Source: a virus (Duplodnaviria; Caudoviricetes). From it: 32,435 nucleotides of DNA. Location of the stretch: IMG/VR virus record IMGVR_UViG_3300025610_002491, positions 1-32,435 of that record; one strand, given 5' to 3'. The notes beneath the pieces were generated by a model. That model saw nothing but the letters and a program-made list of their open reading frames with translations, made no database searches and was not told the DNA's origin. The position numbers and the translations under genes were made by a program. Positions 4,937-32,056 of this stretch are shown in pieces (the first letter of the stretch is position 1; the number at the start of each line of letters is the position of its first letter).

Positions 4937-6421
4937 CTAATAATATACGTATTTACGTTCCCTATAACTTTCCATCTCATCCTCGTCAGCATAAGTAGTT
5001 ATAAAAGAACCTTGCCGATATCTTAACATAGCTTGTGTCGTACTGTCTACATAATCGTCATGTTCGCCATGAGGGAATGCTGCACATTCCTCAATAACTT
5101 CTTGAGCCCAATGTTCGTCTCGAGGATAATACACTTGCCCACTTTCGAAAATAGGTGCAGTGGCGTTGACCCGTGAGTGTTTGTCCTGGCCTCGTCCTGG
5201 TGTGTAATCCATCACCGGTATCCCCATTCTTCTAAATTCTTGTAATAAACTTTGACCACTGGCTTTCGCCTCAATGATCACGGTCTCTGGATTCCAGTAT
5301 TTATATTGATCAAGCGCTACCATTTTTAATTCTGGAAAATCATATTTACCTTTAATCGCATCGAGTAACATAATTGCATCTGGCCCTGATTCGTGAGGCG
5401 TGAATATTCCCCACGTAGTAATAGCTGAATAGTCGGCAGTTTCTTTTTTACTGAACGCTGTATCATAACTTTGAATAACATGTTTTAAAATTGGAAAGTC
5501 CCCTGTCCATGGTTGCCACCATTCTCGTTTTAAAATCGCACCTTCTTCTGAAGTTGGATTTTGCATATACTGCGCAGACCAGTTTCTAATGGATATAGAC
5601 GCTTTAACCTTTTCCAGTTCCTCTAGAGACCAATACTCAGGCCAAACGGGTCTCGAATCTTCACCCTCGCCTAAAATGGCTGGGAAAGAAATTGTTTCCC
5701 ACTTATCTGCCTTAGGTTCATTTTGTGATTTTATTAATCGACCTGTTAAATCATCTTGAGCCCATCTTGTCATTACAAGAACAATTGAGCCTCCTGGTTG
5801 TAAACGTTGTCTTGGTCCAGACAAGTACCAGTCAAAAGTTCTCTCCATTGCTGAATCAGACATTGAGTCTTGTTCAGTATGTGGGTCATCGATAATAAGT
5901 AAGTCCGCCCCTCGTCCAGTGATTGAACCGCCTACCCCCGCTGCAAAGTATTCCCCACCTTGATTGGTCTCCCAACGTCCCTTAGCTTTACTATCTTCTC
6001 GTAGTCTAACATCTCCAAAGATTTGTTTATACTCTGCACTGTCAATTAAATTTCTTACCTTTGCACCGAACCTTCCAGAAAGTTCTGCGTTGTGTGACAC
6101 CTGCATAATTTTCATCTTAGGAAACTTCCCTATCATCCAAGCAGGAAAATAGATTGAAGCAAATTCAGATTTAGTATGCCTAGGAGGCATATTTACAATG
6201 AGCCTTCCTTTTTTGTTTTTAGATATTTTTGTAAACTCATGAGCAATATGTTGATGATGGCCCCACTTATCAGGATCTTTATCAGTACGGCATATGAAGT
6301 CTGGCCAAACATTCTTTACAAAATATAAGAAGTTATCCTGACATAATTTTATATGTTGAAGCCACACTTTTTCGAGCCTCTCTCGTAATTGATCGGTGGT
6401 CAATAATTCTGCTTTAGTCAT
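4937..6421 (-). CDS. terL: Terminase large subunit
   Basis: Walker A variant MPPRHTKS, Walker B LLIIDDP, VMTRW coupling motif, RNase H-like nuclease motifs SYDTA and HDDYVDS. Confidence 0.95.
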   Translation of the reverse strand: MTKAELLTTDQLRERLEKVWLQHIKLCQDNFLYFVKNVWPDFICRTDKDPDKWGHHQHIAHEFTKISKNKKGRLIVNMPPRHTKSEFASIYFPAWMIGKFPKMKIMQVSHNAELSGRFGAKVRNLIDSAEYKQIFGDVRLREDSKAKGRWETNQGGEYFAAGVGGSITGRGADLLIIDDPHTEQDSMSDSAMERTFDWYLSGPRQRLQPGGSIVLVMTRWAQDDLTGRLIKSQNEPKADKWETISFPAILGEGEDSRPVWPEYWSLEELEKVKASISIRNWSAQYMQNPTSEEGAILKREWWQPWTGDFPILKHVIQSYDTAFSKKETADYSAITTWGIFTPHESGPDAIMLLDAIKGKYDFPELKMVALDQYKYWNPETVIIEAKASGQSLLQEFRRMGIPVMDYTPGRGQDKHSRVNATAPIFESGQVYYPRDEHWAQEVIEECAAFPHGEHDDYVDSTTQAMLRYRQGSFITTYADEDEMESYRERKYVYY

Positions 6422-6601
6422 CTAGATTCAATATACACCCGGGTCCCCTAAAAATAAACCCCTGTATTCTACAGCCAGGTACTACTTCTATGTATGCTAC
6501 AAACCTAAAGCTAATTATTAAGAATGTTTAAAAAAAAATCCTAAAAAAATAAAAAATAAAAACTTTTCGTTTTTGGTTTTTGATTGGTACCTCTACGGGT
6601 A

Positions 6602-6623
6602 GCCCAGGCCGTTAGGCCTGGGC
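6602..6623. repeat. GC-rich stem-loop (CCAGGC/GCCTGG family)
   Basis: gcccaggcc-gtta-ggcctgggc, perfect 9-bp arms just after the stop at 6632. Confidence 0.85.
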
Positions 6624-6631
6624 AGGGGAAA

Positions 6632-7051
6632 CTATTGCGCGCCTATTCTTTTAATAGAGTTCTTAACGTTAATTATAAAGTTATTATAATCATAACGCTT
6701 AAAGATTTGCCACGCTTGTTCAACCTCACACGGTTTACTTAATGTAGGCGCCATTAACTTACATTTTTTATCATGAGGTAAGTTATAAACAGAGTGACCT
6801 AGTTCATGTAGTACTACATGTAATAAGTACTGATAACCTCTGTCTATTGCTTTTTCAGTGATCCAGATGTTATGACCTCCGCCCACGCCTAAAACGTTTT
6901 TATATTCATGAGCAGATTCACCGATTCGAACATTTACACGCGGTAAGTTAATGCCTCTGTCACGCGCTTCATATAAAATGTTTATAACTTTACGTCTTAA
7001 CTTATAAACGCTGTCATTCATTTTGTAGTTTTTTATTTCTTTTGTTTTCAT
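6632..7051 (-). CDS. Zinc metallopeptidase-like protein (HExxH, metzincin-like)
   Basis: VLHELGHSVYNLPH followed by CKLM (possible Met-turn). Start moved to 7051 because AAAGGGG SD precedes it. Confidence 0.75.
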   Translation of the reverse strand: MKTKEIKNYKMNDSVYKLRRKVINILYEARDRGINLPRVNVRIGESAHEYKNVLGVGGGHNIWITEKAIDRGYQYLLHVVLHELGHSVYNLPHDKKCKLMAPTLSKPCEVEQAWQIFKRYDYNNFIINVKNSIKRIGAQ

Positions 7052-7090
7052 GTTTTCCCCTTTGTTAGTTGTTAAATTAAACATGTTTTA

Positions 7091-7149: not shown

Positions 7150-7177
7150 CAACCCAGGCGTGTACACGCCTGGGTTG
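7150..7177. repeat. 28-bp perfect palindrome (CCAGGC/GCCTGG family)
   Basis: caacccaggcgtgt|acacgcctgggttg, just after the stop at 7186. Confidence 0.9.
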
Positions 7178-7512: not shown

Positions 7513-7553
7513 AAATTAACCTCCTTGTTAGTTTGTTGTTTTATGTTTAACAC

Positions 7554-7588: not shown

Positions 7589-7608
7589 ATAAAAAATTAA
7601 TTTTTTTT

Positions 7609-7635
7609 CTAGGCCAGGTTGTACGCCTGGCCTAG
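7609..7635. repeat. GC-rich stem-loop (CCAGGC/GCCTGG family)
   Basis: ctaggccagg-ttgtacg-cctggcctag, perfect 10-bp arms. Confidence 0.85.
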
Positions 7636-8456: not shown

Positions 8457-8691
8457 AAGCTACATCCTCCCAGTTACCGTTAACCTTAGCTAATTTTATT
8501 TGATTACTATAAACACTGCCCGCCTCATCAACTAGCCCAAATTCCGAGCCCTTAGAAAAAATTAAAATAGTTTTTTTTAATCCTTTGCCTTGCTTTGGTG
8601 ACTCGAGAAGCTTTCCACTGCATAAGATGACTGGGTGCAATTGGCTGCTTTTTATTTCCTGCCCTTTTTTTAGATCTTTAAACATTATCAT
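8443..8691 (-). CDS. Hypothetical early phage protein (82 aa)
   Basis: Start moved to 8691 (MIMFKDLKKG) after SD AAGGAG; overlaps the GP88 start. Confidence 0.75.
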   Translation of the reverse strand: MIMFKDLKKGQEIKSSQLHPVILCSGKLLESPKQGKGLKKTILIFSKGSEFGLVDEAGSVYSNQIKLAKVNGNWEDVAYAPA

Positions 8692-8807
8692 TTTTTTTTG
8701 CTCCTTTGTTAGTTGCGGCAGCCTCAACTCTCATTCAGGGCCCTGGATTTAATAGCTTAGGTTTACAACTCCTTAACGGTCCTGACATAGTAAACTACTG
8801 CCTTGAT

Positions 8808-8900: not shown

Positions 8901-9070
8901 CTAATACTAACAGTATTAGGAAAAATCTCGGTATTGATCTCAAGATTTACCTGCGCACTAATACTAACATATATGAAAAAATTTTGGTTATTGATCGCAA
9001 GATTTACGCGCATACTAATACTAATAAAAAGAAAAATTATTCTGGTATCAATCTCAAGAAATACGCGCCA
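8901..9070. repeat. Three degenerate tandem repeats, 57-bp period
   Basis: ctaatactaa at 8901, 8958 and 9015; each unit also carries a (g/t)tat(t/c)(g/a)atc(t/g)caaga(t/a)(t/a)tac block. Confidence 0.8.
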
Positions 9071-9087
9071 AGCTATGCTTGGCGCGT
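9063..9087. repeat. Perfect 11-bp inverted repeat
   Basis: acgcgccaagc-tat-gcttggcgcgt. Confidence 0.85.
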
Positions 9088-10220: not shown

Positions 10221-10424
10221 TTATTGCTCCATTTTTTTCTTTGTTAGTTTAAATTGTAGTGGGTTGAACTTGATGCAATTATTGTATTCAACCTTTTAGT
10301 CAAGAACGCACCACAAAGTTATTTTTATTTTTTGGTAGCGTAAACCCAAAGTTTATATTTCTATAACACCTATATACGCTTTGTTGTCTCGGTAATACCA
10401 ATTAAAAACAACTAAAAAATTCTT

Positions 10425-11024
10425 TTATCCGATAGTAAAGCCACCAGAAAATTTACAAAAAGTTGCAAACTCTTTCACATTTTCTAAATTAAAAGGATAA
10501 TTACCCATACTATTTCTTTTTTGTAGTATTCTATCCCACTGTTGCTTTTCTTTTTTCGGAAAATCTATTGGCGCCCAACCAGGTTGGTTGTATTTTTTCT
10601 TAACACTTTCACTAAAGGCTTGTAGCTCTTTTTCAACAATTTCATTTTTCTTTTCTGCTTTTTTTCTTAAAAGCTCAAACTCTTTAGCATATTTTTTAGT
10701 ATGACCAGTGCTAATTAAATGCTCTAATTGTTGCGCAATCATTTTAGCGTCTTGGTCATTAACTTCGTGATTATCGTTGAAGTGCCATCTTTCAGCGTCT
10801 TTTTCACTTACGACTTTTGTAAATCTAATTACATAATCGGCAAGTGGTCGCCACCACCAAACATTGTTCCTAAAGTAAGTGCCACTTTGACTTTCGTATT
10901 TGTCCATTTCTTCAAAATATTTTTCTCTCTCTTCTTGAGAAAAATTTTCGTCATGTAAGTTATCTGGTCTTTCTGGTCTTTTAATTGTTGTTTGTGGATT
11001 TAATCCATATAAGTCAAAACCCAT
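10425..11024 (-). CDS. Hypothetical early phage protein
   Basis: 199 aa, SD AGAGG; MGFDLYG...YFRNNVWWWRPL...SGGFTIG. Confidence 0.85.
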   Translation of the reverse strand: MGFDLYGLNPQTTIKRPERPDNLHDENFSQEEREKYFEEMDKYESQSGTYFRNNVWWWRPLADYVIRFTKVVSEKDAERWHFNDNHEVNDQDAKMIAQQLEHLISTGHTKKYAKEFELLRKKAEKKNEIVEKELQAFSESVKKKYNQPGWAPIDFPKKEKQQWDRILQKRNSMGNYPFNLENVKEFATFCKFSGGFTIG

Positions 11025-11053
11025 TTTATACCTCTTTTTGTTAAATTGTTAAT

Positions 11054-11232: not shown

Positions 11233-11544
11233 CTAAATTTTTTTAATTTCTTTTATTACAGAATTAGGAATTATGGTTGTATTACCTATATTCTCAATTT
11301 TCTTTTTATCTTCACTAAAAGAATAATCTCCAAAAATTCTGGTTATACCTTTAGATTGAGAGAATAAATGACCTTTTGTAATACAGGTTGCAAGCTCACT
11401 ATTTTTTAAATTTTCAAAACTAGTCCATGAGCTATCACTAACTATATCATACCACTCAACAGAAACCATTGGATATTTTTCTATTTCACTATTTACTTTT
11501 TTAGGAATTGTAATTTTTTTATTATTTCGTTTTTTAATTTTCAT
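11233..11544 (-). CDS. Hypothetical phage protein (103 aa)
   Basis: YPMVSVEWYDI...CITKGHL...TTIIP. Start moved to 11544 because the extra 30 residues in the track simply translate the DNA repeat. Confidence 0.75.
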   Translation of the reverse strand: MKIKKRNNKKITIPKKVNSEIEKYPMVSVEWYDIVSDSSWTSFENLKNSELATCITKGHLFSQSKGITRIFGDYSFSEDKKKIENIGNTTIIPNSVIKEIKKI

Positions 11545-11643
11545 AAAAATCTCGGTATTTGTTCTCAAGGTTTGCAAAAAAATCTCGGTATGTATTCTCA
11601 AGATTTGGAAAAAAATCTCGGTATGTATTCTCAAGATTTGGCA
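11545..11643. repeat. Three tandem 33-bp repeats
   Basis: aaaaatctcggtatttgttctcaaggtttgcaa / aaaaatctcggtatgtattctcaagatttggaa / aaaaatctcggtatgtattctcaagatttggca. Confidence 0.95.
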
Positions 11644-11739: not shown

Positions 11740-12249
11740 CTATTCAAGAGTTTTTTCTGGCGTGACGTCAATAATATCTTTGGCCTCTCCGATTTTACCT
11801 TCGAGTTCAGATAATCTTTTTTCAAGTTCCTCACGACTCATACCCTCCAATCCCACATGGGTTACTTCTTTTTTATCTATAAAAAATCCTGCCATCTGGC
11901 CACTTCTATACTCTGCATTTATAGCATGCCCAAATTGTTTTTTCTTCTCAGCTTCTTTACTAAGTCGCTCAAAATTTTTATACTTCTTAAGTTTATCCCC
12001 GGAATATTTTTTTAATTCCTGATTGTATCTCATTTCCATATATCTAACTACGTGTGGGTTTTTATTTGGATCTGTGAGTCTACTTGCGATTTCTGTAGGT
12101 CCTTCAGGCTTTACTGATTTATAACCTGCTCTTTTGGCTGCTTCTACTTTGGAAAGCTCACCCCAATTCTCAACATATATATCAACAAACGCTTTTTGTT
12201 TTTGCGTCAATTCATTTATAGCTTTTAGTGTGTTTTTTCTTTTTGCCAT
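11740..12249 (-). CDS. terS: Terminase small subunit
   Basis: LTQKQKAFVDIYV...KVEAAKRAGY HTH, ASRL...PHVVRY, AINAE...GFFIDKKEV, MSREELEKRL. Confidence 0.85.
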   Translation of the reverse strand: MAKRKNTLKAINELTQKQKAFVDIYVENWGELSKVEAAKRAGYKSVKPEGPTEIASRLTDPNKNPHVVRYMEMRYNQELKKYSGDKLKKYKNFERLSKEAEKKKQFGHAINAEYRSGQMAGFFIDKKEVTHVGLEGMSREELEKRLSELEGKIGEAKDIIDVTPEKTLE

Positions 12250-12287: not shown

Positions 12288-12545
12288 CTCCTTACAAACA
12301 TTTTTTTAAATTTTTTTTTGCACAAATGACATCCTCTGTAATTTTTCCTAAAACTTTGGGAATTTTCCCAGTCTTAAAAAGCACTTTGGGACGTTATTAT
12401 TCTTATTCTAAGCCATTTTTCCCAATTTCCCAGAAATTTGCTCCTTACAAACATTTTTTTATTTTTTTGTTTCTAAGGAGTAGGTATAGGGAAAACTGGG
12501 AAAGTGGCAGAATCGTGGCCCGTGATCCGTGGTCCATTATCCCAG
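12288..12545. other. Repeat-rich non-coding region: candidate replication origin or packaging site
   Basis: Perfect 21-bp direct repeat ctccttacaaacattttttta (12288, 12441); multiple TTCCCA/TGGGAA elements in both orientations; T-tracts; three CGTG heptads at 12514-12531. Confidence 0.55.
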
Positions 12546-12697
12546 TCACTATCAACTACAAAATATTACCAATTACCAAGATGCACGGCTACCGAACCAC
12601 TGACAAAAGGACAGTATAGATGATAACTATCGATTAGGTGCCACTAGTGGATACCTTAACATAGATATCCGTAAATCAACCAATAAAAAGGACAAAC

Positions 12698-13063
12698 ATG
12701 TACACTAAAAGTGCTAAAAATACACAAGAAATCGCTAATGAAATATTAAATTTTTTCATATTATTTAGCGAAACAGCTAAAAGAAATGGTTTAAGAAAAC
12801 ACCATTTAACAGCAGGACATTTAGGAATTATGATAGCAATTCCTGAAAGCTTTGAGAATGGAGAACATTTAATAAGTTCATTTTCAGCAGTAAGGATTTA
12901 TAAGAGCTTTAGGGCCCTTAATTACCAATGCTCGTCTGCATCTTTTAGAATGAATCTAAATGAATTAGTTAGACTCGGATATCTTAAAAAAGAAAACTAC
13001 GAGTACAGCTATAATTTATTTTTCTCAAAACAAGAAGTTGACTTTAGCGAACAACTCCAGTAA
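12698..13063 (+). CDS. Putative winged-helix DNA-binding protein
   Basis: 121 aa, SD AAGGA; SSASFRMNLNELVRLGYLKK resembles a wHTH recognition helix plus wing. Confidence 0.55.
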   Translation: MYTKSAKNTQEIANEILNFFILFSETAKRNGLRKHHLTAGHLGIMIAIPESFENGEHLISSFSAVRIYKSFRALNYQCSSASFRMNLNELVRLGYLKKENYEYSYNLFFSKQEVDFSEQLQ

Positions 13064-13066
13064 TAA
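13038..13066 (+). promoter_or_regulatory. Putative sigma70 promoter for sRNA-1
   Basis: TTGACT-N17-TAATAA inside the 3' end of the upstream gene; ATGGGAT operator half-site at 13066-13072. Confidence 0.5.
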
Positions 13067-13072
13067 TGGGAT

Positions 13073-13155
13073 ACGCATAATTTCATTATTGTGCCTCTTT
13101 GTTAGTTCTAGGCCTGGCTTTTTATATTCATTTCCCAGGCCTAGACTTTTTTCTT
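13073..13155 (+). ncRNA. Candidate trans-acting antisense sRNA-1
   Basis: 5' hairpin gcataat/attgtgc (G-U pair on + strand), exposed cctctttgttagtt, then terminator hairpin tctaggcctgg/ccaggcctaga plus U-tract. Confidence 0.55.
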
Positions 13156-13156
13156 T
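13107..13156 (+). terminator. Intrinsic terminator
   Basis: 11-bp perfect arms 13107-13117 / 13135-13145 followed by cttttttcttt. Confidence 0.75.
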
Positions 13157-13183
13157 GACACCATCTTCAATATTTGATAATCT
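13155..13183 (+). promoter_or_regulatory. Strong sigma70 promoter with extended -10
   Basis: TTGACA-N17-TAATCT with TGn immediately before the -10; no normal ORF downstream. Confidence 0.7.
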
Positions 13184-13189
13184 ATTTAT

Positions 13190-13270
13190 TATTAACTTAG
13201 GAGGGTTCTCATGAGTTAACTTGTTTACCCTGTAGTTTATAGATTGCTCCCTTAGGCTACAGGGTTAAAC
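13190..13270 (+). ncRNA. Candidate sRNA-2 (two hairpins, embedded Met-Ser-stop minigene)
   Basis: Hairpin ttaactta/tgagttaa encloses AGGAGG-N6-ATG AGT TAA; 13-bp stem accctgtagttta/taggctacagggt (two G-U pairs on + strand) with loop tagattgctccct. Confidence 0.5.
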
Positions 13271-13738
13271 TTCAATCGATAAATCTTTTTTAAAACTATC
13301 AACAAATACGTTATCAGCATGTGATATTTGTCTACGTTTATTTTCTAAATTTCGTCTCAGCTCACGTCTTAAATCTTTATCCACTTCAACCTTAAGTCTT
13401 TGAAATAATTTATTATATTCATGCCATAACAAATGACGTCTTTTAAATTTGATATCACCATTCTTTAACGCTTTATAATATCTAAATCGAACATCATCCG
13501 GTTCCCATCCGGCCCACCAACAGATCTGTTCAAAGTCATCAGATGCTGCAATCCAAAAATGTGCATCACACTTATTTAAACTTGATTTACGATCTCCTGC
13601 TAAAGCTCTTGCATCTTCAAATGCATTTAAAATAACATGACGCCATAATTTCTGTTCATTACTTATGTGATTATCTGCAATAATATCGGCAGTAATTTTA
13701 GTGCCCATAAGTTTTAACAAGTCTGGAGAGTAGATCAC
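13265..13738 (-). CDS. Hypothetical phage protein
   Basis: EQKLWRHVILNAFEDA...DFEQICWWAGWEP; true start may be the MGTK Met. Confidence 0.8.
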   Translation of the reverse strand: MIYSPDLLKLMGTKITADIIADNHISNEQKLWRHVILNAFEDARALAGDRKSSLNKCDAHFWIAASDDFEQICWWAGWEPDDVRFRYYKALKNGDIKFKRRHLLWHEYNKLFQRLKVEVDKDLRRELRRNLENKRRQISHADNVFVDSFKKDLSIEV

Positions 13739-13943
13739 GATAATGGCCTTTCGATTTATTATATTTAAACCGAGTGGCGACCTCGTAATGTTCTAATACA
13801 TCATCAATTAATATTGTGATGGCTGCGCCTTGAAGTTTCTCTTCTTTGATATGAGCTTTGATATCTTGAAAGTCTTCGTTCATTTCACGTTTAGTATAAT
13901 TATCAGGCATCATTCTTTGGACTCCAAAATTTATAATGCTCAA
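13698..13943 (-). CDS. Hypothetical protein
   Basis: Part of an overlapping operon; start probably at the internal MMPDN. Confidence 0.65.
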   Translation of the reverse strand: MSIINFGVQRMMPDNYTKREMNEDFQDIKAHIKEEKLQGAAITILIDDVLEHYEVATRFKYNKSKGHYRDLLSRLVKTYGH

Positions 13944-14539: not shown

Positions 14540-15259
14540 TTAATTTAATTTTTTATTATTCCATCCAGATACTTGATCTAAATATTCTTCAGGACTCATT
14601 AAACCATGTTTTTTCTCTATTAAATCTACAAAATTTTTAGATCGTTCAACTAAATGTTTAGGCGCAACAATGTCAAAAGCTTCTTTTAACCCACTGCCCA
14701 AGATAGTACTCATCACCTGGGGATGTTTCATTTTTCTTTGAGCTTTACCTATGATTTGTCTTACTCGTTCTCTAGATAGATGAAATGTTTGAGCAATTTC
14801 CTCTAAGGTATGCTCATGGCCATCATCAAAACCGAATCGCATTTTTAATATTGCAGCTTCTCTAGGATTCAAACCTTTTTCAATTGCAACTCTAATCTTA
14901 ATCTTAGCCTGCTCTTCAATAAGTTTTTGCTCCTGGTTTTTAGTTGGATTAACAATTTGTTTAAGATCTTTTTCTTTAACTTTAATTTCAAAAGATCTTT
15001 TATTGAATCCTTGTAGTTGTCTTTCAGTAAAACAATCTTCCAAAGTAACATTAAGAACTTCTAATAACTTAGCGCAAACACCAACTAAGGTACCTTTTTC
15101 AGTAAAAGGTTTTAGTTTGCCAGCCACTAACTCTGTTAATTGTTGGTAAGGCAGATAATTTTTTTCTGCAAAACTTCTTACACTTATGTAACCTTTATCC
15201 TCAATTAACTTTAAGATACGTTCATTCCTAATTGTTATTTTTACTCGATAGTCACTCAT
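14540..15259 (-). CDS. XRE-like HTH fused to a sigma70 region 4 domain
   Basis: N-terminal SVRSFAEKNYLPYQQLTELVAGK...KLLEVLNVTLEDCF; C-terminal LNPREAAILKMRFG...TLEEIAQTFHLSRERVRQI closely matches RpoD region 4; no region 2. Confidence 0.8.
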   Translation of the reverse strand: MSDYRVKITIRNERILKLIEDKGYISVRSFAEKNYLPYQQLTELVAGKLKPFTEKGTLVGVCAKLLEVLNVTLEDCFTERQLQGFNKRSFEIKVKEKDLKQIVNPTKNQEQKLIEEQAKIKIRVAIEKGLNPREAAILKMRFGFDDGHEHTLEEIAQTFHLSRERVRQIIGKAQRKMKHPQVMSTILGSGLKEAFDIVAPKHLVERSKNFVDLIEKKHGLMSPEEYLDQVSGWNNKKLN

Positions 15260-15746: not shown

Positions 15747-15974
15747 TTAATTCTCTAACTTCCTCATGGCTAAAAATTTAGTCTTAGCTATTCTTAACAT
15801 ACGATCAAACAACGGCTCTGCTTTAAAAGTTTTAATAGTATTTCTCATTTCACCATTTACAATTAAAGTCAGAGTGTTATTTGAATGGTCTAATTCTATA
15901 GTGAAGAGTTCTTTACCCTTCACTCTAGTATCAATTCTTTTTAGATCGCTTTCCGTCATCATTACTTTCTCCAT
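15747..15974 (-). CDS. Hypothetical protein
   Basis: In operon; start probably at MMTESD. Confidence 0.7.
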   Translation of the reverse strand: MEKVMMTESDLKRIDTRVKGKELFTIELDHSNNTLTLIVNGEMRNTIKTFKAEPLFDRMLRIAKTKFLAMRKLEN

Positions 15975-16158
15975 TTAAAAGTTGTTTACGAAAATTTTCT
16001 ACACTAATTTTATTTTTCTTAGCTAAGTGTTCTACGTAACCTTGAAGCATTTTAGATATCATTGCGCCAGGTGCTCTGAATTTATTTTTACAAAGACCCT
16101 TTAACAATTTGTAATCTTTAATGTTAATGGCTACAGATTTCCATTTATTTATGTCCAT
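15931..16158 (-). CDS. Small DNA-binding protein (ribbon-helix-helix-like)
   Basis: WKSVAINIKDYKLLKGLC...AMISKML strand-helix-helix pattern; SD GGAGG. Confidence 0.6.
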   Translation of the reverse strand: MDINKWKSVAINIKDYKLLKGLCKNKFRAPGAMISKMLQGYVEHLAKKNKISVENFRKQLLNGESNDDGKRSKKN

Positions 16159-16697: not shown

Positions 16698-16730
16698 ATC
16701 TTAAATATATGGGATAAGAATTAATGTCAA
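16698..16730 (-). promoter_or_regulatory. Sigma70 promoter with inverted copy of the operator box
   Basis: TTGACA-N17-TATTTA; ATCTTAaatataTGGGAT at 16698-16715, between divergent genes. Confidence 0.75.
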
Positions 16731-25000: not shown

Positions 25001-26407
25001 ATGTATAATTATAAAACAAAACCGTTCGAACATCAAAAGCAAGCCTTAATTCAAGGGGCCAAAGACTATAATTTTGCTTACTTTATGGAGATGGGTACAG
25101 GTAAAACTAAAGTTGCAATTGATAATGCAGCTTATTTATTCCAGGATAAAAAAATAGATTTTGCATATGTCATTGCACCTAATTCAGTTTATCAAAATTG
25201 GAAAAAAGAAATTAAAACTCATTGTCCAGAAGAAGTGAATATGTATATTTGGAAAGTTTCTAAAGACAAAGATTTTAAAATTGATCCAAGTAAATTAACA
25301 TTTATATTAATGAATGTTGAAGCACTATCTCATACATCAGGTAAAAAATGGTTAGAAAGTAAATTAATTAAAACTGGTATGAGAAGTATGATTATACTTG
25401 ATGAAAGTACATCTATAAAAAATCTTAAAGCATCTAGAACTAAGTCTATAATTAAATTAGGACAGCTTGCTAGATATAAAAGAATTCTTACTGGATCACC
25501 AGTAACAAAATCACCTTTAGATTTATTTTCTCAATGCGCATTTTTAGATAAACAATTATTAGGCTATGATACCTTTACTGTATTTAAAGCAAGGTATGCA
25601 GTTATGTATAATATAGAACGCGGTGGTTATAGTATTCAAATACCAAAGTATTATGTGAACCTAGAAGAGTTAGAATATAAAATAAAAAACTTTTCTTATA
25701 GAGTTAGAAAAAAAGATTGTTTAGACATCCCACCTAAAATGTATGTTCAAAGACATGTGGAACTACCGGATGAACAAAGACAAGCTTATGAACGACTTAA
25801 ACAAAATGCATTAATAATACTTAAAGATGATGAAGTATCCTACAACAACAAACTAACAGAACTACTTAAACTACAACAAGTGGCTAATGGTTTTGTTAAA
25901 ACTAATGAAGGGGATATAGTTGAATTTAAAAGCAATGCAAAGCTAAAAGAATTAATGAGTGTATTGGAGGAGACTCAAGACAAGTGTATCATATGGGCTA
26001 ACTATGTTTATAATATAGAAATGATAAAAGCCAAATTGAAGGAGACTTATGGAGAAGATTCAGTGGTTTCGATATACGGAAAAGATTCAGTTGAAGTACG
26101 TAACGATGCTGTTGAAAATTTTCAGTCTAATGACCGATGTCGTTTCCTTGTTGGTAACCCTACTGTTGGCGGTTATGGTCTTACCCTTACTGCTGCTAAG
26201 TATGTTATATATTTTAGTAATTCTTACAATCTGGAAGTCCGTCAGCAAAGCGAAGATCGTGCTCATAGACATGGTCAAACTTCTCAGGTCACATATGTAG
26301 ATTTAATTGCAAAAGATACTGTTGATGAAATGGTATTACACAATTTAGAAAATAAAATTGAATTATCTGCTAAGACTCTTGGGGAACAGGTTCAGAAGTG
26401 GCTTTAG
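25001..26407 (+). CDS. SNF2-family (superfamily 2) helicase
   Basis: MEMGTGKT, ILDES, LTGSP, GGYGLTL, QSEDRAHRHGQ. Confidence 0.93.
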   Translation: MYNYKTKPFEHQKQALIQGAKDYNFAYFMEMGTGKTKVAIDNAAYLFQDKKIDFAYVIAPNSVYQNWKKEIKTHCPEEVNMYIWKVSKDKDFKIDPSKLTFILMNVEALSHTSGKKWLESKLIKTGMRSMIILDESTSIKNLKASRTKSIIKLGQLARYKRILTGSPVTKSPLDLFSQCAFLDKQLLGYDTFTVFKARYAVMYNIERGGYSIQIPKYYVNLEELEYKIKNFSYRVRKKDCLDIPPKMYVQRHVELPDEQRQAYERLKQNALIILKDDEVSYNNKLTELLKLQQVANGFVKTNEGDIVEFKSNAKLKELMSVLEETQDKCIIWANYVYNIEMIKAKLKETYGEDSVVSIYGKDSVEVRNDAVENFQSNDRCRFLVGNPTVGGYGLTLTAAKYVIYFSNSYNLEVRQQSEDRAHRHGQTSQVTYVDLIAKDTVDEMVLHNLENKIELSAKTLGEQVQKWL

Positions 26408-31595: not shown

Positions 31596-32056
31596 TAGTT
31601 TAACTCCTTAGTATATAAATATCTTTTAACACCCCAACCTTTTGTTTTTAAAAAAGGCATCCAACCTGGTCTTGCATGCACAGCGATTCTTTTACAACCT
31701 TCTGATTTTGCAATGTTCTCTATTGTATCAGCAAGTTGGTCTTGCCACAATTCTCTCTTCTCTCCTTTTAAAAGGATAACTTCACATTGAGAAAAATTAG
31801 GTAAAACTGTAATTCTTACTACACATACACCAAATACTTTATATTGGATACCATCGTCTGATCCAAACATCATGAATAGACCCATCTTATTATTTTTGAT
31901 ATATCCTTTTAAATCTTCAATAGTCATAGGGTCTCCATCATATTTAAGACCTTCTCTCAACATAAACTCTACTAATGACCAGTACTCATCCACCATTGAT
32001 GGAAATATCTCAAGTACATCTACTTGTTTTTTAATTTTAGTTTTGTTTGCTTGCAT
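31595..32056 (-). CDS. GNAT-like virion assembly protein
   Basis: IENIAKSEGCKRI...ARPGW...KGW pattern; immediately upstream of the ejection genes. Confidence 0.6.
   Translation of the reverse strand: MQANKTKIKKQVDVLEIFPSMVDEYWSLVEFMLREGLKYDGDPMTIEDLKGYIKNNKMGLFMMFGSDDGIQYKVFGVCVVRITVLPNFSQCEVILLKGEKRELWQDQLADTIENIAKSEGCKRIAVHARPGWMPFLKTKGWGVKRYLYTKELN

Follow-up and report, generated by a model that had tools for sequence, protein, structure and literature searches.

A conserved plus-strand RNA unit predicted to target the early-gene leaders of HTVC023P-type Pelagiphages

Genomic context of the locus

The stretch of DNA analyzed here (hereafter, the window) is a 32.4-kb virus record with a completeness of about 54%. 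Its DNA polymerase shares 84.9% identity with that of Pelagibacter phage HTVC023P and its gene order is that of HTVC023P; the window is an HTVC023P-type Pelagiphage, and its host is therefore probably SAR11. A search for a prophage or host link returned a single match in genome contigs, a 5.6-kb contig from a Bacteroidetes bin, and this lead was dropped. No antirepressor or integrase match was found among the 45 proteins of this roughly half-complete record, and the phage group is described as lytic in the accessible part of PMC12753301.

Between the genes for the terminase small subunit (terS, 11740-12249, start at 12249) and the terminase large subunit (terL, 4937-6421) there is a run of minus-strand genes to which no function could be assigned; several have a TTGAC promoter of their own. 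The genes of this block likely form an early class, an assignment that comes from promoters and synteny and not from homologues of timed expression. In the accessible portion of Table S3 of PMC12753301, gp35, gp36, and gp38 of HTVC027P, which occupy the same position before terL, are assigned to the class Early and drop after 3-6 h; homology between these three and the block genes of the window was not detectable. Elsewhere, the window encodes a sigma70 region 4 protein (14540-15259, minus strand) and an SNF2-type helicase (25001-26407, plus strand), the latter on the strand opposite to the replication block. Two related direct-repeat arrays (8901-9071 and 11537-11640, with periods of 57 nt and 33 nt) share a AATCTCGGTAT-like core and are possible packaging or origin sites.

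Five genes of the block are preceded, on the minus strand, by versions of one box. Box and Shine-Dalgarno (SD) sequence together occupy 7057-7070 before the gene starting at 7051 (a homologue of HTVC023P gp28), 7520-7533 ahead of the gene whose start is 7512 (a gp27 homologue), and 8701-8714 before the gene starting at 8691, whose stop is overlapped by gene 8456, of the GP88 family. In the leader of the gp24 homologue, whose start is 10220, the box (10236-10249) lies upstream of the SD, and a degenerate box with SD at 11031-11047 precedes the gene starting at 11024 (gp23 homologue). The four intact leaders lie where the original prediction, made from the letters of the window, had placed them, as does a further copy at 13094-13107.

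Allowing up to two mismatches, a scan of the window for the box returned eight matches, against 2.3 ± 1.5 in shuffled sequences, none of 100 of which reached eight. The exact 9-mer AACTAACAA had five minus-strand copies (the four leaders and 13099-13107) and none on the plus strand, and its reversed control had none. The complete HTVC023P genome has six AACTAACAA copies, located in its own version of the unit described below, in four leaders, and within one gene. Among relatives, AACTAACA was present in 58 of 113 early leaders versus 1 of 189 other leaders, in a comparison for which the 'early' gene clusters were picked after box counts had been seen.

The box is not restricted to this group. 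The combination of box, SD, and ATG occurred in about 1400 viral stretches versus about 480 for a control of the same composition, that is, about three times as often. Only 11 of 120 sampled box loci matched proteins of this phage group (41 of the loci being shorter than 800 nt), and most came from unrelated phages, where the box preceded varied gene types. Given that it is common in unrelated phages, the box is probably a strong unstructured leader that the group has adopted as a tag, not a private code.

Operator-like imperfect palindromes at four places (7096, extending to 7113, as well as 7554, 8808, and 11054) lie over four of the five box-gene promoters. One more copy, inverted, sits at 16698-16715, immediately before gene 16694. 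The operon of this gene includes a 75-aa ORF (15931-16158, minus strand) that has no family match and gives the impression of a ribbon-helix-helix protein; its product is a candidate binder of the palindromes. Hairpins between early genes at about 6600-6625, 7150-7177, and 7605-7632 have CCAGGC in common with the terminator of the RNA unit presented next; read on the coding strand, they are not followed by a U-tail.

Anatomy of the RNA-1 unit

The plus strand at 13038-13156 carries a compact promoter-hairpin unit, which we term RNA-1. Its sigma70-type promoter, a TTGACT (13038-43) separated by 17 nt from a TAATAA (13061-66), can be read directly from the sequence just as originally described; a promoter scanner reads it as an 18-nt spacer followed by AATAAT. 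The -10 element overlaps the stop codon of a 121-aa ORF (12698-13063) that lies upstream on the same strand. The predicted RNA is about 80 nt long (13073-13152), with a 5′ end placed by promoter spacing and a match to our covariance model, and there is no plus-strand ATG within it. Its predicted fold consists of two hairpins (plus strand, z = -6.7; minus strand, z = -5.5). The predicted 5′ hairpin (13075-13094) has a UUCAUU loop containing an anti-AUG, and the terminator-like hairpin with its U-tail (13107-13156) has an 11-bp stem and a U-rich loop. A simple terminator scan does not list this terminator because its loop is 17 nt, and in the window its stem has no G-U pair and is strand-neutral. 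A search of Rfam gave no match at the locus, and two matches elsewhere in the window had E values of 0.27-0.33.

Between the hairpins, the sequence at 13094-13107 is the complement of box plus SD, and is here called the seed. It had been described as largely unpaired, which holds for 13095-13103 (at least 95% unpaired) but not for 13094 and 13104-13107, which are mostly or partly paired. The pairing reported for it was reproduced in full: 14 of 14 positions with the leaders at 7070 and 7533 (13 Watson-Crick pairs and one G-U), 13 of 14 with the leader at 8714, and 12 contiguous positions with that at 10249. Pairing with the leader at 11031-11047 is weaker (11 of 14, gapless).

The upstream 121-aa ORF matched no family at threshold, its winged-helix look being an impression only, and by tblastn 4 of 81 loci had a match, two of them with the ORF and the RNA in one orientation. 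A module of repressor plus RNA conferring immunity was considered and rejected; the upstream ORF is variable and is not a fixed partner of RNA-1.

Among 18 listed sequencing runs, 14 are RNA, and all consist of assembled contigs that carry neither strand nor ends. No separate RNA-1 transcript was seen among these contigs. In the four runs compared over 12500-13900, portions of the neighboring genes are represented and no contig covers 13111-13251, making them uninformative for an 80-nt RNA. One unstranded, low-depth contig (X9) takes in 13059-13100 and extends past the RNA-1 promoter on its upstream side, which fits read-through or DNA.

Conservation across relatives

We examined 79 loci, comprising 80 related loci, the window, and HTVC023P, less three that ended within 150 nt of the anchor gene. 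The RNA-1 unit was present in 73 of the 79: 65 were found by pattern, one (L051) by a looser pattern, and seven more by the covariance model; a pattern match in L096 is due to chance. The cultured phage HTVC023P (L081) is among the carriers. The 65 pattern-found units represent 51 distinct cores.

RNA length ranged from 79 to 101 nt across 50 units. Under a loose rule, 50 of the 51 distinct units have a -35-like hexamer at a distance of 40-51 nt from the box, and a strict promoter rule found a plus-strand promoter in 27 of 51 versus a minus-strand promoter in 1 of 51. A 5′ hairpin was predicted in all 50 units, with differing stems, and the anti-AUG was unpaired in 26 of them. The mean unpaired probability of the seed (anti-box) was 0.79 over the 50 units, and its GTTAG was nearly fixed in our alignment A1. 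In the terminator stem, 95.4% of alignment cells were paired, with two-sided changes at 12 of 12 pairs, and covariation reached 0.613 versus 0.259 when shuffled and at most 0.18 when slid, all in 31 selected sequences with a structure drawn from our own reading of the alignment. A U-tail with at least five T in 9 nt followed the stem in 37 of 50 units, and fewer than five T in 13. G-U pairs in the downstream hairpin region favored the plus strand (84 versus 24), although 18 of 51 such regions folded better on the minus strand, and the bias in the 5′ hairpins was small (31 versus 24). Collectively, the RNA-1 unit is conserved and likely functional.

Three loci (L066, L068, and L069) kept box leaders and lacked the unit. 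In this clade, L066 has a sense box at about 11560-11620 (minus strand), followed by a hairpin with an anti-SD/anti-box loop. The covariance model had no match in HTVC027P, 023Pt_psg01, or DSL-LC04 (30 kb each), and early leaders of the first two differ from the box type. The terminator loops of L004, L005, L014, L017, and L020 read UUCCUUUCU, which resembles an alphaproteobacterial 16S rRNA tail; they are also the complement of the GAAAGGA leaders found in HTVC027P and 023Pt_psg01.

Immediately downstream of RNA-1 lies a second promoter (TTGACA 13155-60, TAATCT 13178-83) with an RNA-like unit of its own (13155-13270, plus strand). The loop of its hairpin (13223-13270), GAUUGCUCCC, complements GGAGCA, the sequence around the SD in early leaders, which was found in 46 of 113 early leaders versus 1 of 189 other leaders. 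In 65 of 79 loci, a GCTCC-type motif lies close to this position, and G-U pairs favored the plus strand (115 versus 34). The unit with its conserved GAUUGCUCCC loop lies just past the anchor gene in L031, L033, L081, and others. In two lineages it also contains an apparently leaderless ORF of about 29 codons, absent in the window, that ends in Pro-Pro-stop, a ribosome-stalling motif. L001 and L002 have a third promoter-hairpin cassette between the two units, forming a tandem array of three RNA-like units.

Predicted pairing with early leaders and its match to lineage

Pairing was assessed with simple duplex energies for the 34 distinct RNA 5′ domains, out of 38, that had early leaders. The mean predicted duplex was -18.8 kcal/mol on early leaders (n = 113) versus -11.9 kcal/mol on other leaders (n = 189), and the duplex z relative to shuffled RNA fell below -2 in 82% of early versus 10% of other leaders. 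With RNA and leader averages removed, RNAs were predicted to pair with early leaders of their own phage 1.28 kcal/mol better than with those of others (-1.28), a value reached in 0 of 5000 permutations, and control genes gave -0.02. Across eight lineages taken from a protein tree, five of which have one or two members, the mean own-lineage advantage was -1.78 (printed p of 0.0000 over 40320 permutations), versus +0.08 for control genes (p = 0.63), and most of the advantage came from the part comprising box and SD, which alone gave -1.13 (p = 0.0001). Seed and box had been expected to covary among related phages, and predicted own-lineage pairing was indeed better in 8 of 8 lineages, although common descent of seed and leaders, without selection, could give the same signal.

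Individual loci illustrate the pattern. In L028, AATTAAC is common to the RNA complement and its own leaders. Among distant clades, seed changes in L078 are accompanied by leader changes, and in L072 neither an anti-box in the cassette nor an exact box in the leaders is present. In a position-wise table of seed and box, 7 of 32 leaders versus 4 of 87 had T at position 10, which is suggestive only, the selection being box-biased. The G-U differences within seed-leader duplexes, noted in the original prediction, did not prove specific in a mirror test (-0.80 for early versus -2.03 for control genes).

The duplex ranking is not exclusive, with some non-box leaders scoring as well as box leaders. 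Among 42 starts in the window, those of terS (12249) and the sigma-like gene (15259) ranked within the top six, and among 85 starts in HTVC023P the five box genes ranked 1, 2, 5, 7, and 11. The terminator loop was also considered as a second seed for terS, with which it forms the best duplex of the window (-15.1); this candidate was rejected, as control clusters that included terS had no own-lineage signal, the 5′ domain having been tested.

Interpretation and rival explanations

We consider it probable that 13038-13156 is a plus-strand RNA unit and that, as predicted from sequence, its RNA represses translation of the early genes of its own phage. The original prediction had one small RNA silencing a whole gene class. 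What is supported is a plus-strand antisense gene facing its own box leaders, as argued for by conservation, promoter polarity, compensatory stems, and lineage-matched pairing, while the class comes down to about five genes and is not exclusive. Likewise, lineage-matched pairing favors the proposal that box and seed are a co-evolved address tag, whereas the presence of the box in unrelated phages weakens it; the box may be a borrowed strong leader and not a tag made for the RNA.

Under the repressor reading, host sigma70 polymerase would transcribe RNA-1 from TTGACT-N17-TAATAA, and read-through from the upstream ORF may add to it. The transcript is predicted to fold into the 5′ hairpin, an open linker, and the terminator, for the last of which covariation is seen in the alignment. 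The complementary open linker would then nucleate on the AACUAACAA box, itself predicted to be largely unpaired, and pairing would spread over the SD and onward to the AUG as the 5′ hairpin opens. 30S binding would thereby be blocked, and early proteins would fall as RNA-1 accumulates. RNA-1 would in this way be a further brake, backing up the operator sites that four of the five promoters carry. The probable ancestor of the unit is an early-gene leader whose ORF was lost and which acquired a promoter facing it, and an origin of the site as a cassette remnant, as was raised from the outset, is plausible.

Several other explanations merit weighing against this repressor. The RNA could be real with mainly foreign targets, namely leaders of superinfecting or competing phages or strong-SD mRNAs of the host, its action on own early genes being incidental. 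We judge this unlikely, though unrelated phages commonly have the box, several lineages have AUUCCUUUC terminator loops complementary to GAAAGGA leaders of HTVC027P and 023Pt_psg01, and some predicted cross-lineage pairing is strong (G RNA on D leaders, -2.1). The own-lineage advantage in all eight lineages is what self-targeting predicts, and blocking of incoming kin would use the same mechanism and so is compatible with self-targeting. The box might instead be a protein site, on DNA or mRNA, with the copy at 13094 being a decoy or an extra site read on the minus strand. A single binding protein would likewise make the copies covary, the box core is kept while its distance to the SD varies, and the G-U usage of the duplexes lacks specificity. 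That reading is nonetheless improbable: a minus-strand promoter precedes the copy in just 1 of 51 units while a conserved plus-strand promoter faces it, and the copy keeps the SD complement, and usually the AUG complement, without a conserved ORF.

The unit could also be simply a decayed early-gene cassette, with a hairpin that only ends transcription and a box that is a strong generic leader. In favor of this, the box is widespread, and the RNA-1 hairpin has CTAGGCC in common with a hairpin before the 7512 promoter, which the covariance model scores weakly (E = 0.26). In 73 of 79 loci, however, the core is unchanging, a promoter faces it at a constant distance, and two hairpins that vary are retained, which would not be so for a dead leader, and we regard this explanation as quite improbable. 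The original prediction had offered its own alternative, in which the site is the minus-strand ribosome-binding site of a small protein gene of 25 codons (13009-13086, ATG at 13086). The SD-ATG spacing is good and an ATG is present in most units. The ORF is present in the window but is not conserved: its counterparts in relatives vary from 1 to 58 codons, consist of start and stop only in five units, have no ATG in L047 and L056, share no sequence past the first few codons, and lack a promoter. A protein-coding function was rejected on these grounds, and we hold such a gene to be very improbable.

If the repressor reading is correct, an RNA switch over the early class would add the layer that has been missing from early-gene shut-off in these phages, which depend on host polymerase. 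HTVC023P is cultured and carries the unit, and the idea is therefore testable.

Comparison with known systems

RNA-1 has, in silico, the features of a trans-encoded base-pairing sRNA, including its own promoter, an accessible and conserved seed against target ribosome-binding sites, co-change of seed and target, and no conserved protein. We found no description of it in the literature covered, including the accessible parts of PMC9599517, PMC5737381, PMC2704228, and PMC10690425; in the last, the six supplementary files searched had no motif match, and RNA-1 may be among its unnamed candidates.

The available text of PMC12197685 describes c4 of P1/P7 as a phage antisense RNA that is encoded apart from its target and blocks translation around the ribosome-binding site of a phage mRNA. 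As far as this source goes, RNA-1 resembles c4 in being encoded apart from its targets, in predicted pairing around the ribosome-binding site, and in a specificity that differs between related phages. In contrast, c4 acts on one mRNA (ant) in a temperate phage, and RNA-1 faces about five separately promoted genes in a group described as lytic (accessible part of PMC12753301). The c4 target is an antirepressor in a temperate immunity region, whereas RNA-1 faces genes of unknown function, and RNA-1 belongs to none of the Rfam families, C4 included.

Both sar of P22 and OOP of lambda are encoded opposite their targets. In the accessible text of PMC12197685, they are short phage antisense RNAs that lower phage gene expression via mRNA pairing. 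RNA-1 is like them a short phage antisense RNA, with predicted pairing to phage mRNA, but they have one target each in the material available, while RNA-1 lies 2-6 kb from its predicted targets and would pair via a repeated box. The same partial source presents VpdS (VP882) and PreS (lambda) as trans-encoded phage sRNAs that have several or distant targets, bind Hfq, and act largely on the host (PMC12197685). RNA-1 is predicted to share trans-encoding and several or distant targets with these two, and differs, on what that text offers, in a predicted pairing that is long, near perfect, and tracks phage leaders.

The closest layout is that of cluster K mycobacteriophages, where SAS/ESAS, an asymmetric box, is fused to the SD before non-structural genes, and for which the RNA or protein partner is stated as undetermined in the accessible portions of PMC3203893, PMC11373665, and PMC12699233. 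The Pelagiphage box is similar, in layout only and as far as those portions describe it, in being SD-fused in one orientation before non-structural genes, with inverted repeats at promoters and a lone copy off gene starts. The box itself, AACTAACAAAGRRG, is unrelated to the 13-bp SAS consensus given in the available part of PMC3203893, and copy number differs, with 11-19 SAS in the sources at hand versus about five Pelagiphage boxes. The lone copies also differ, that of the Pelagiphages being in leader orientation with an opposing promoter facing it, and that of cluster K being an inverted SAS within the loop of a hairpin, close to the reported start of the late transcript, around which a promoter-terminator cassette could not be defined. 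The inverted SAS forms the loop of a long, conserved hairpin in 5 of 7 cluster K genomes (Anaya, Angelica, Biglebops, Shaobing, and, as a variant, Ekdilam) and is lost or changed in Yuna and Keshu. In Anaya (L106) it is located at 31870-31883, between gp96 and gp97, and it was also seen in L107, L108, L111, and L112.

A tentative generalization, which we put forward as possible, is a phage RNA regulon in which a short RNA would read a tag fused to the ribosome-binding sites of a dispersed early class, a second RNA loop would read the SD context, and tag and RNA would drift together, giving lineage-specific control or exclusion. The Pelagiphages would then be the clean case, and the inverted SAS hairpin might be the missing RNA partner of the cluster K SAS. 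RNA-1 also offers a concrete, testable answer to what reads the start-associated sequences of cluster K. For the Pelagiphages themselves, RNA-1 is likely a new variant of phage antisense control, similar in its working to P1 c4 and P22 sar, but with several distant targets and a sequence outside Rfam.
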